Assembly: GCA_036172245.1 (NCBI GenBank)
Contig: JAYWIR010000029.1
Location: 248,001 to 312,000 of the forward strand
Direction: 5' to 3'
Origin: Raillietiella orientalis
Lineage: Eukaryota
Length of the DNA: 64,000 nucleotides
The position numbers and the translations under genes are program-made. Shown here piece after piece: positions 58,887 to 61,800 of this stretch. The notes beneath the pieces are model-generated. The model was not told the origin of the DNA. It worked only from the letters and a program-made list of their open reading frames with translations, and did not search any database. Numbering within the stretch: the stretch's first letter is position 1; each line of letters begins with the position of its first letter.

Positions 58887-61800
58887 TTAAATGAGTTTTG
58901 TTGCATGTGCTGGCACAACCTGAAAGGAGGAGGTATCCATTTGTTCCACCATTAATCCATGTGGCAAATCAACAGAGAAAGGAACACTTTTCATAGAATT
59001 ATTATAAAATGGACCTTTGGCAGGTTTGTGTGGCGAGCGTGCTTCTACCACAATAGGTTTGTGCATCTGTTCAAACACAGATGGTGCTACATATGTAAAT
59101 CCCTAAATAGCTTATTAGCTGATGCAAAATAGCATGCAACTTATACCTGAAACACCTGATTTACACTTTCACTAAGGGTTGTATCATCAGGTGAATCCAC
59201 TGGTGTTTGCTTAGTGAAACGAGTGTCAAATTGTGATACATCTTCAGCACCTGACTAAAAATGCAATGTACAACCTTGACTGATTTATAAGCTGACCAGA
59301 ATGGGTTTGAAAGGGGGTTCCAATTTTTTTAAAGTAACTTCCTGCCAAAACACATGTTGAAAAAAAGGATGCACTTTAATGGGATCAGCATCATTAGGAC
59401 CACTTCCAATCCTGAGCGCTACCTGTCTCTGGATTCAGACTTTAAATTTTAGTTTAGCGTATTGTACGAACCTTGAGGAGTTTGCGAAGAAGATCTCTGG
59501 CATCCAAGGTGAGAAAGGGAGGAAGAATTAATTTACCTTTCAGAATCTTCTCAATAGTTTTCTTACGATTCTCACCCGTGAAAGGAGGCTGTGTGAAATA
59601 TTTTGCAATATTAATGATATACTCACAGATCCTGTTAGCATATCATACATGAGAGCTCCTAGAGACCACCAGTCAACAGCTTTTCCATGTCCATGTCTTG
59701 TTAGAATTTCAGGAGCCCTATGTTGAACCTAATTTCAAGTTTATGCTTCCAATCATGTACTCACATGTACTCTATTGTACCACAAAATGTATGTGTTACC
59801 GATCCATCTTTTATAGCTTCCTTGCAAAGTCCAAAATCTGTAAGTTTAACATGCCCTTGAGGGTCTAGAAGAATGTTTTCTGGTTTCAAATCTCTAACAT
59901 AAATCTGAATTTTTAGATTCAACGTTAACACACAGCTAACCTGTAAATGATTCCCTGCTTATGCAAATGTTCCAAAGCAAGAATGATTTCCGACAAATAA
60001 AAACTATGGGAATCCATATTTGTACATTAAAAATATATGAAACACAACTTACCAAGTTGTATCCTCCAAAAAGATTCCCTCTCTTTCCAAATGCATGAAC
60101 AACTCACCTCCACTTAGATATTCTAAGATCAAGTACAATTTACCCCCAGTTTGAAAGGCATATATCAAGTCAACAATGAAAGGATGCTAGCAAATGCTGT
60201 ATCAAATACCCGATGCATATTAAATACCTTCACAGCTTCCAAAATGTTTCGTTCAGCCTTGGTATGAGCAGTGTCTTTTTGACTTCTTATAATACTTGCT
60301 TTTTTTAATACTTTCATTGCAAAGATTTGTCCGCTATCATATCCGCGCATTTTCTTCACTTGGAAAACTTTTCCATATCCTCCCCGTCCAATAACTTTAA
60401 GTAACTGAAAATCCTGAGGTCCTGTTCTCTCATTTCCAGAACTTGCATACTGATCAGATATCACAATCTCTTCAACATCGGATCTATTAAGTTAGGGAAA
60501 TTATCAACCTTTTAATAAACAGCAAGACTGTAATAATAGTAAGTGAATTGAACATATGAAAAATTTTAATGCTCAAACAGATTACAAGTCTAATTGAGAT
60601 TTTGAGCATCCACATTGAAAAATAGTACCTTGAAACAAGTCAATAAACTTTCAACTGCATACATTACCAAACTATTAAATTGAATATACTAAAACTTGTT
60701 CAAAATGATAAAACATGCTTACTCTGCATTTTCCACAGAGATTAAACCAGGATCAATGGTACTCTAAAATAAACGTTTGCAATAATTAAATTCTTTCGAT
60801 ATTCTAAAGGAATTTATTTAAAATGCACAATAAACAACTAATGAAGCTTCAGGTACTTATTTTTTTTTTGCAGCAATATTACACATTGTAAACATAACTT
60901 ATGAATATTAGATGTGAATGCAAAATGTTGCATAGAAGCTTATATTACTGTTCAGATGCAAGCAGTTCATAACAATAACATAGGATATTCTTCAGGAAAC
61001 AATAATAACAAACCTAATCTTAACATAAAATAAAAGCATACGTATATGGCTACAATGCAAATGAACATTTTGATGAAACGAAACAAAATATTACATTGGC
61101 GTAAATCTTAACTTAAATCAACTGTGCATGAACACACATTTTGTCAAACACAGAGTGAGCAAAGAAGCCATAAGTTGTGTAAGAAATTCAAATCTTACTT
61201 AAATGTAATATAAAGTCCAGCGCAAATTTCTATCATTCTTTTTTAACTTGAATTTAAAGCTATATAGTTTTTATGTATGCTTCATACAGATTGCCTTATC
61301 CAAATTGACAATCGACCTAATTATTGAAAAAAGTATGTATACAAAATTTTCTTTGAAGAAGTCTTTTTGTATTGGATAAAATATAGATCAATGACTTCCG
61401 CATTTAAGTTAATTGGCACTTATGTTCTGCAAAAACTTAAACACATGAGAAATCTATACACTTCACAATTTTCAGTTCAGTGGACTGATAAAATATAGAT
61501 ATGAACTGAAATTGCTTTCGAAGTATCCTAAAGGACACAGACAACATAAGTGAACAAAAAAAAAATAATAAGAAAGAACAAACAAGAAAGCATAGTATAT
61601 TTAATAAAAAATATACTCAAAGGATTATATTTATTTGAATTTCTTTCATGAGATTTTTTCGGAATTTTAAAATGCATCCACTGTAATAAATACTTATCTA
61701 TTTTTTCGAGTTTCTTTATGTTTGTTACTTTAAGATAAAGCTAAATTGGAAAAAGTAAAAACAAAACAATGATTTCAACGTTCTAACTTAAATCAAAATT

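Follow-up and report, generated by a model that had tools for sequence, protein, structure and literature searches.

In all cases measured so far, tight peaks of short introns extend across the whole genome (Gotoh 2018, PMC6157073), and the first-component modes given in parts 23 to 25 of supplementary file 1 of that survey are our main source of intron lengths. Arthropod modes there lie mostly between 52 and 100 nucleotides (nt). The shortest is that of the beetle Tribolium castaneum, 47.55 nt with a median of 48.99 nt, followed by Leptinotarsa (51.6 nt), Onthophagus (52.9 nt), Priacma (53.7 nt), Dendroctonus (54.2 nt), Megaselia (54.8 nt), Belgica (55.7 nt), Drosophila (about 58 to 61 nt), Lepeophtheirus (59.4 nt), Sarcoptes (60.5 nt), Daphnia (64.2 nt), Tetranychus (68.3 nt), and Pediculus (79 nt). 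The nematodes Strongyloides, Meloidogyne, Steinernema, Caenorhabditis, and Pristionchus have modes of 42 to 46 nt, and other nematodes in the table range from 50 to 100 nt; the sponge Amphimedon is at 47.7 nt, the flatworms (flukes) are at 32 to 39 nt, and many eukaryotes have modes of 42 to 48 nt (PMC6157073). Here we describe a 64-kilobase (kb) stretch of contig JAYWIR010000029.1 (the window; all coordinates are positions within it) in which a p70 S6 kinase (S6K) gene has eight introns of 38 to 49 nt and a ribosomal protein gene, RpL28, has a ninth of 45 nt.

Searched for twelve genera, the supplementary file shows no collembolans, Strepsiptera, rotifers, or Oikopleura (PMC6157073). Elsewhere, PMC9218549 gives a median intron of 79 bp for Demodex, and the introduction of PMC13644364 puts the shortest animal introns typically at about 50 to 90 bp, slightly above those of the window. 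In the portions of the literature covered we found no arthropod mode below that of Tribolium and no arthropod or crustacean lineage below 50 nt; genome papers outside that coverage could hold one. An initial annotation of the window had taken the short introns of Drosophila and most arthropods to be about 55 to 70 nt or more. As far as the tabulated modes go this is roughly correct, most of them lying at 52 to 100 nt, but it misses the Tribolium exception (mode, 47.6 nt; median, 49.0 nt). In an arthropod host, a short-intron class near 44 nt would lower the minimum modestly, undercutting the shortest arthropod mode of the 2018 compendium by about 4 nt; in a host from outside the arthropods, lengths of this order are nothing unusual.

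RESULTS

Identification of the S6K gene

The S6K gene occupies positions 58887-63720 on the minus strand. Three stored insect S6K proteins (P0008, P0009, and P0006) tile the locus as short pieces in tblastn searches. A spliced alignment of the minus strand with the louse protein P0008 gave nine exons running from 60482 down to 58887, with eight introns between them. The joined pieces encode 414 residues without a stop codon, 295 of them identical to P0008. The alignment continues through the AGC C-terminal extension, which is defined by its turn and hydrophobic motifs, and reaches residue 429 of the 451 in the louse protein; the homologues carry PF00433. At the other end, exon 1 pairs with the first 30 residues of louse S6K in tblastn, including an F-D-I-E-L stretch that corresponds to the N-terminal TOS-type motif. 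Across about 370 to 390 residues, the spliced protein is 75 to 80% identical to its orthologues.

Searches with single exons gave a consistent assignment. With the kinase N-lobe exon as the query, 1,448 of 1,506 database candidates matched at an E value of ≤0.001, and the named proteins among the best 120 matches were mostly S6K beta-1 or beta-2. The nine best distinct sequences in a PDB search were RPS6KB1 (90.5 to 95.9 bits), ahead of MSK1 (75 bits) and RSK (61 to 65 bits). The Pfam Pkinase model matched two exon frames at 53.8 and 35.8 bits, against a cutoff of 31.7 bits, and two more at 30.7 and 29.2 bits; the C-terminal exon, used as a homologue query, gave no match. We conclude that the assignment is, as judged from the sequence, secure: the gene is an orthologue of p70 S6 kinase and resembles S6K more than it does RSK, MSK, or Akt.

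Exon-intron structure of the conserved region

All of the short introns lie in the conserved part of S6K, and the spliced alignment places each of them, with GT and AG at its ends, on the minus strand. The N-lobe exon (60228..60483), identified by its S6K beta-1 matches, by RPS6KB1 in the PDB, and by Pkinase at 29.2 bits, is followed by an intron of 41 nt (60187..60227, phase 0) and an exon of 134 nt (60053..60186) found by tblastn, the spliced alignment, and Pfam. An intron of 49 nt (60004..60052, phase 2) then precedes an exon of 63 nt (59941..60003; tblastn and spliced alignment), and an intron of 47 nt (59894..59940, phase 2) leads to the 129-nt exon of the catalytic and activation loops (59765..59893; Pkinase, 53.8 bits). 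A second 47-nt intron (59718..59764, phase 2) separates this from a 91-nt exon (59627..59717; Pkinase, 35.8 bits), after which comes the shortest intron, of 38 nt (59589..59626, phase 0). The remaining exons were all located by tblastn and the spliced alignment: one of 117 nt (59472..59588), bounded downstream by an intron of 43 nt (59429..59471, phase 0); one of 132 nt (59297..59428), bounded by an intron of 42 nt (59255..59296, phase 0); one of 108 nt (59147..59254), bounded by an intron of 44 nt (59103..59146, phase 0); and the last (58887..59102), which holds the hydrophobic-motif region, the tail, and the stop codon. The eight lengths, in the order 41, 49, 47, 47, 38, 43, 42, and 44 nt, and the outer coordinates, 59103-60227, reproduce those of the initial annotation.

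The short introns interrupt the reading frame at conserved positions

All nine short introns, the eight in S6K and the 45-nt intron in RpL28, have GT...AG termini, and the reading frame is restored across each of them; seven of the nine lengths are not multiples of three. Frames between the S6K pieces are closed by stop codons, and every one of the eight introns breaks the open frame of its flanking exon. The 42-nt intron is a multiple of three, yet the open frame of the exon upstream of it stops at 59285.

We compared the intron positions with those in 80 eukaryotic metagenome loci encoding S6K relatives, of which 16, chosen for their several alignment pieces or long contigs, were inspected. 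The record that contains the window is absent from the 80, and these loci are not close relatives, their best exon identity being 71 to 77%. The S6K introns follow residues 85, 129/130, 150/151, 193/194, 224, 263, 307, and 343 of the partial protein, and each of these eight positions lies within a few residues of an alignment break in one or more of the 16 loci. The DNA gaps at the corresponding breaks measured 49 to 3,835 nt, and no intron of 38 to 48 nt occurred in the loci inspected. Since the positions match breaks that have longer gaps elsewhere, the introns appear to be old and shared and to have been shortened in the lineage of the window. A pattern of this kind in the sequence cannot be chance. 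The coordinates, termini, frames, and conserved positions of the introns are direct observations, and from these we infer that the introns are spliced.

The 5′ end of S6K

Upstream of the N-lobe exon the intron and exon ends are inexact, because the protein is poorly conserved there. Exon 1 (63631..63720, minus strand) begins with a start codon at 63720-63718, and residues 1 to 30 of P0008 match 63720-63625 at 62% identity in tblastn. Its donor is placed at 63630, the best consensus-like site; a rival at 63622 scores about equally. Candidate models on the same strand suggest a long first intron of about 2,867 nt (60764..63630), a micro-exon of 41 nt (60723..60763), and an intron of 239 nt (60484..60722) with an AG acceptor directly before 60483. 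The donor after 60723 (GTAAGC) was used in three of the four best-scoring of 12 models, and the acceptor of the micro-exon fell at 60763 or 60761.

The RpL28 gene

RpL28 adjoins S6K at a distance of 7 kb, also on the minus strand. Exon 1 (51955..52041; start codon at 52041) was found by tblastn with P0121 and P0125 and matched the N terminus of Ribosomal_L28e at 22.5 bits. The alignments place an intron of 428 nt with GT-AG ends (51527..51954) between it and exon 2 (51398..51526), which, like exon 3 with its stop codon (51137..51352), was delimited by Pfam and the alignments; the Ribosomal_L28e score for the gene is 52.7 bits. Between exons 2 and 3 lies the 45-nt intron (51353..51397), which has GT-AG ends, is in frame, and contains no stop codon. 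Alignments to P0121, P0122, and P0125 leave a gap of 15 residues exactly at this intron, so that the 45-nt intron proposed in the initial annotation is borne out by three homologues.

A word-index search with RpL28 gave one match only, a mantis shrimp protein of 48% identity. HMMER found 165 relatives at an E value of ≤0.001 among 1.84 billion representative proteins, and none of the best 150 listed exceeded 52% identity; the best match (52%) proved closely similar to the mantis shrimp protein in its alignment. With so few relatives, and none above 52% among the best 150 listed, RpL28 appears unusually divergent for a ribosomal protein.

Length classes and splice sites

The two genes together provided a census of 12 introns. 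Nine fall at 38 to 49 nt (mean, 44.0 nt; median, 44 nt), and the other three measure 239, 428, and about 2,867 nt. This distribution, with nine of 12 introns short and the others at 239 to about 2,867 nt, suggests the familiar sharp peak at the minimal length, trailed by much longer introns, rather than a genome that has lost its long ones. At their 5′ ends, the nine short introns carry donors that follow GTRAGT loosely. The base preceding the terminal AG is T in six of the nine and C in three, and branch-like motifs lie 16 to 32 nt from the 5′ splice site. The acceptor consensus of nematode type is the pyrimidine-rich TTTCAG; none of the nine short introns ends in it.

Host lineage of the two genes

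A quick maximum likelihood tree of S6K was built from 45 rows drawn from the best 120 matches, comprising the named near-full-length species and ten unnamed sequences. The set held no lophotrochozoan (mollusc, annelid), rotifer, tardigrade, onychophoran, or myriapod, and two flatworm matches were left out. Identities to the window protein were 76 to 80% for insects, 77% for Artemia, 76% for ticks, 75.6% for a hemichordate, and 73 to 74% for two nematodes. In the tree the window sequence fell inside the arthropod rows, with a support of 96 in the Shimodaira-Hasegawa-like approximate likelihood ratio test (SH-aLRT), and the nematodes stood apart (100). The window, an isopod row, and a clade of branchiopods plus insects formed an unresolved group (SH-aLRT, 80), and the join of window and isopod was flagged as a possible long-branch artefact.

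Dinucleotide content gave a second indication. In the S6K gene, the exons have a ratio of observed to expected CpG of 0.32 and the long introns one of 0.42, and TpG/CpA is in excess (about 1.3); in RpL28 and intergenic DNA the CpG ratio is 0.71. The CpG depletion and TpG/CpA excess of S6K suggest germline methylation of cytosine in the gene body. The rhabditid nematodes with short introns are not known to have cytosine methylation. A rhabditid host is disfavoured by the acceptors, by the CpG depletion, and by the crustacean-like best match of RpL28.

The initial annotation had assigned the window to an arthropod, and the S6K trees favour a clade of arthropod type; an approximately unbiased (AU) test, however, does not reject a grouping of the window with nematodes (P = 0.289). 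The argument of the initial annotation had been the presence of an Ets65A-type gene, which was not recovered: ETS-domain motifs gave nothing relevant in the six frames of the window, and no Ets or PNT domain occurred among 883 stop-to-stop frames scanned with Pfam. Homeobox and zinc-finger motifs likewise gave nothing relevant in six frames. The scanned frames were, from 42 to 64 kb, 122 and 94 with a minimum of 45 residues; from 1 to 42 kb, 150 of the 152 that reach 118 residues; from 9.8 to 19.3 kb, 110 of 50 to 117 residues; and from the rest of 1 to 42 kb, 407 of 40 to 117 residues. They yielded only Ribosomal_L28e and protein kinase matches, together with four matches below the cutoff at the level expected by chance.

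Composition of the window

S6K and RpL28 are confined to the last 13.5 kb of the window. The G+C content (GC) is 49 to 65%, mostly above 55%, from 1 to 42 kb, falls through about 39 to 58% between 42 and 50.5 kb, and is about 30% beyond. Distances in dinucleotide relative abundance are 0.033 to 0.040 among the three thirds of the GC-rich part and 0.058 between the two halves of the AT-rich part, but 0.19 to 0.27 between the GC-rich and AT-rich parts. The ratio of observed to expected TpA is 0.35 to 0.54 in 1-50500 versus 0.71 to 0.72 in 50501-64000. No repeats were common to both sides of 50.5 kb; several recur within 1 to 50.5 kb. The discontinuity at 50.5 kb may come from a chimeric assembly, or the DNA may be extremely heterogeneous by nature.

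Positions 1-42000 contain many long open frames on both strands, mostly without asymmetry of GC between codon positions. No Pfam domain reached the cutoff in the 667 frames scanned there, and from its sequence this part appears to be noncoding. A candidate first exon on the minus strand at 31316-31777 shows, by eye, an ATG, a proline run, and a consensus-like GT donor; the enclosing open frame has 466 residues and a GC content at third codon positions of 0.72. The candidate had neither a Pfam match nor a usable match in the protein atlas, and it may be what was initially taken for a transcription factor gene. At 6875-7140, a C/T-rich unit of 23 nt is repeated in tandem about 11.6 times, with 72% matches.

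Dispersed repeats of 130 to 480 nt occur at 13719-14528, 29852-30136, and 46731-47563, and also at 45451-45576 and 46953-47079; they are 69 to 91% identical and about 16 to 17 kb apart, with one copy inverted. Because these repeats are common to both, the transition zone from 42 to 50.5 kb is tied to the GC-rich part. Within the zone, 47784-48331 on the plus strand matches positions 666-1454 of the eukaryotic large-subunit ribosomal RNA (rRNA) model at 124 bits, with many mismatches at conserved positions, and is probably a pseudogene derived from ribosomal DNA. The idea that the GC-rich 42 kb is a decayed array of ribosomal DNA was dropped, since no additional piece of rRNA turned up when 1-42000 was searched with Rfam by E value.

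DISCUSSION

We consider it the best explanation, with a probability of about 0.6, that the S6K introns are an ordinary minimal-length class handled by a standard spliceosome in a host that is probably of arthropod type. On this account, the region with the short introns would be the 3′ two-thirds of a functional p70 S6K orthologue, and its eight introns would stand at ancient, widely shared S6K positions and have shrunk to the minimal length of the lineage, about 44 nt. They would be ordinary U2-type GT-AG introns, most likely recognized by intron definition by the standard major spliceosome. Their length would be kept at the shortest that the spliceosome of the lineage tolerates, by deletion bias opposed by selection against unspliceable lengths. 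The 5′ introns of S6K would have remained long, and RpL28, with introns of 45 and 428 nt, would follow the same pattern. The host would be an AT-rich protostome, probably CpG methylating, with an S6K and an RpL28 of arthropod type, probably pancrustacean, and the class of 38 to 49 nt would be expected to hold genome-wide.

Several results weigh against this reading. The sample is small, two genes with 12 introns between them. Over the 14 bases that precede the acceptor, the pyrimidine fraction reaches just 0.43 to 0.64, a low value that makes the splice signals weak. The motif YTRAY occurs 12 to 31 nt upstream of the 3′ end in six of the nine short introns, and shuffled sequences (mean, 3.2) also reach six in 125 of 2,000 trials, so the branch-site-like signal is weak as well. 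As to the host, the tree set sampled no lophotrochozoan, tardigrade, onychophoran, or myriapod, and the window S6K branch is long (0.66 to 0.72). With the isopod removed, the window joins a polytomy at the base of the arthropod-type clade (SH-aLRT, 98), with the nematodes apart (99), and AU tests reject neither the window with insects (P = 0.486) nor the window with nematodes (P = 0.289; log likelihood difference, 5.65). The two genes also adjoin 50 kb of DNA whose dinucleotide signature is very different, and the whole record may be a chimera or carry the wrong label.

A more specific version of the arthropod reading is possible, and we offer it tentatively. The host might be an arthropod, perhaps a crustacean outside the branchiopods or a member of some other pancrustacean group that has been poorly sampled, and its genome-wide minimal class would lie near 44 nt and reach down to 38 nt. 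No other arthropod would have a shorter class; the polypyrimidine tracts would be weak, and branch sites would come as close as about 16 nt to the 5′ splice site. If so, the floor of about 50 nt in the arthropods surveyed so far would not be a property of the arthropod spliceosome.

The alternative that survives best, although we think it unlikely, is that the AT-rich genes come from a nematode or another compact protostome outside the arthropods, in which introns of 40 to 50 nt are normal. The range of 38 to 49 nt fits the nematode modes of 42 to 46 nt in the 2018 table (Gotoh 2018, PMC6157073). The AU result for nematodes allows such an origin, as does the nearly equal distance of the window S6K from everything sampled (nematodes at 73 to 74%, insects at 76 to 80%, and the hemichordate at 75.6%), and a lophotrochozoan relative would have had no row to join in the tree. 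The unconstrained trees nevertheless separate the nematodes from the window with supports of 100 and 99 and place the window with arthropod rows at 96 and 98, and the absence of TTTCAG acceptors (zero of nine), the suggested methylation of S6K, and the crustacean-like matches of RpL28 all argue in the same direction.

A local property of the genes, such as selection that keeps introns short where a housekeeping gene is broadly expressed, seems improbable to us. The sample consists of two genes, each of the housekeeping kind, as this explanation would have it; the two are unrelated, however, and share one narrow class (45 nt in RpL28 versus 38 to 49 nt in S6K), and tight peaks of this kind have been genome-wide in every case measured (Gotoh 2018, PMC6157073).

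It also seems rather improbable that an arthropod lineage has changed its spliceosome, in U2AF, SF1, SF3b, or the small nuclear RNAs, to accept unusually small minimal introns. The weak polypyrimidine tracts and the branch-like motifs only 16 to 32 nt from the 5′ splice site would suit such a change. Eukaryotes with modes of 42 to 48 nt are not known to depart from the canonical spliceosome, and a special spliceosome is unnecessary because nematodes (42 to 46 nt) and beetles (48 to 54 nt) splice such introns with standard machinery. In an arthropod, a center of about 44 nt and a minimum of 38 nt would lie below every arthropod mode in the compendium, but the shift from Tribolium (47.6 nt) is just about 4 nt, and many eukaryotes listed there have modes of 42 to 48 nt (PMC6157073).

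Finally, an artefact (misassembly, a pseudogene, or unspliced in-frame insertions) is very improbable: the window is compositionally discontinuous, and the short introns of 42 and 45 nt have lengths divisible by three, the 45-nt one also being free of stops, but the other seven of the nine do not, all eight S6K introns break an open frame, the spliced S6K is intact and 75 to 80% identical to its orthologues, and the intron positions agree with those in other species.

The finding is a modest extension of a known phenomenon, not new splicing biology. Introns of similar or smaller size have already been described from nematodes, sponges, fungi, and flatworms, so that no new splicing question arises. 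Should the host be an arthropod, the lowest intron length known from that phylum would drop by a few bases, and the locus would add data on what determines minimal length. The main use would lie in gene prediction: pipelines often disallow introns of less than 50 nt, so that genes like the window S6K would be fragmented, and models of S6K and RpL28 need annotation that is aware of short introns.

Compared with human RPS6KB1 and Drosophila S6k, the window S6K has the same kinase domain and AGC C-terminal extension and the same N-terminal acidic stretch with a TOS-like motif; it differs in gene architecture, with its eight introns of 38 to 49 nt, and no functionally notable difference was seen. 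The beetle Tribolium castaneum offers the closest length peak among arthropods in the tabulated data, a sharp short class with a long tail in an AT-rich genome of arthropod type. Its mode of 47.55 nt comes from a genome-wide fit, however, whereas the window gives nine introns, of the 12 seen, with a center of 44 nt and a minimum of 38 nt (PMC6157073). The S6K proteins differ as well, the firefly row being 73.5% identical to the window and the cricket and cockroach rows 79 to 80%; a beetle origin, prompted by the Tribolium mode of 47.6 nt, is disfavoured, since of the insect rows those of beetles belong to the less similar ones. Rhabditid, strongyloidid, and tylenchid nematodes (modes of 42 to 46 nt in the same table, PMC6157073) show the same length range and bimodal pattern as the window, which differs from them in lacking TTTCAG acceptors (zero of nine), in its CpG-depleted gene body, and in an S6K that groups with arthropod rows. 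Myxozoans and dicyemids would share with the window a lineage-wide shrinkage of introns, but their medians of 22 to 27 nt, as given in PMC13644364, are accompanied by reduced splice-site motifs, and the introns of the window are about twice as long.

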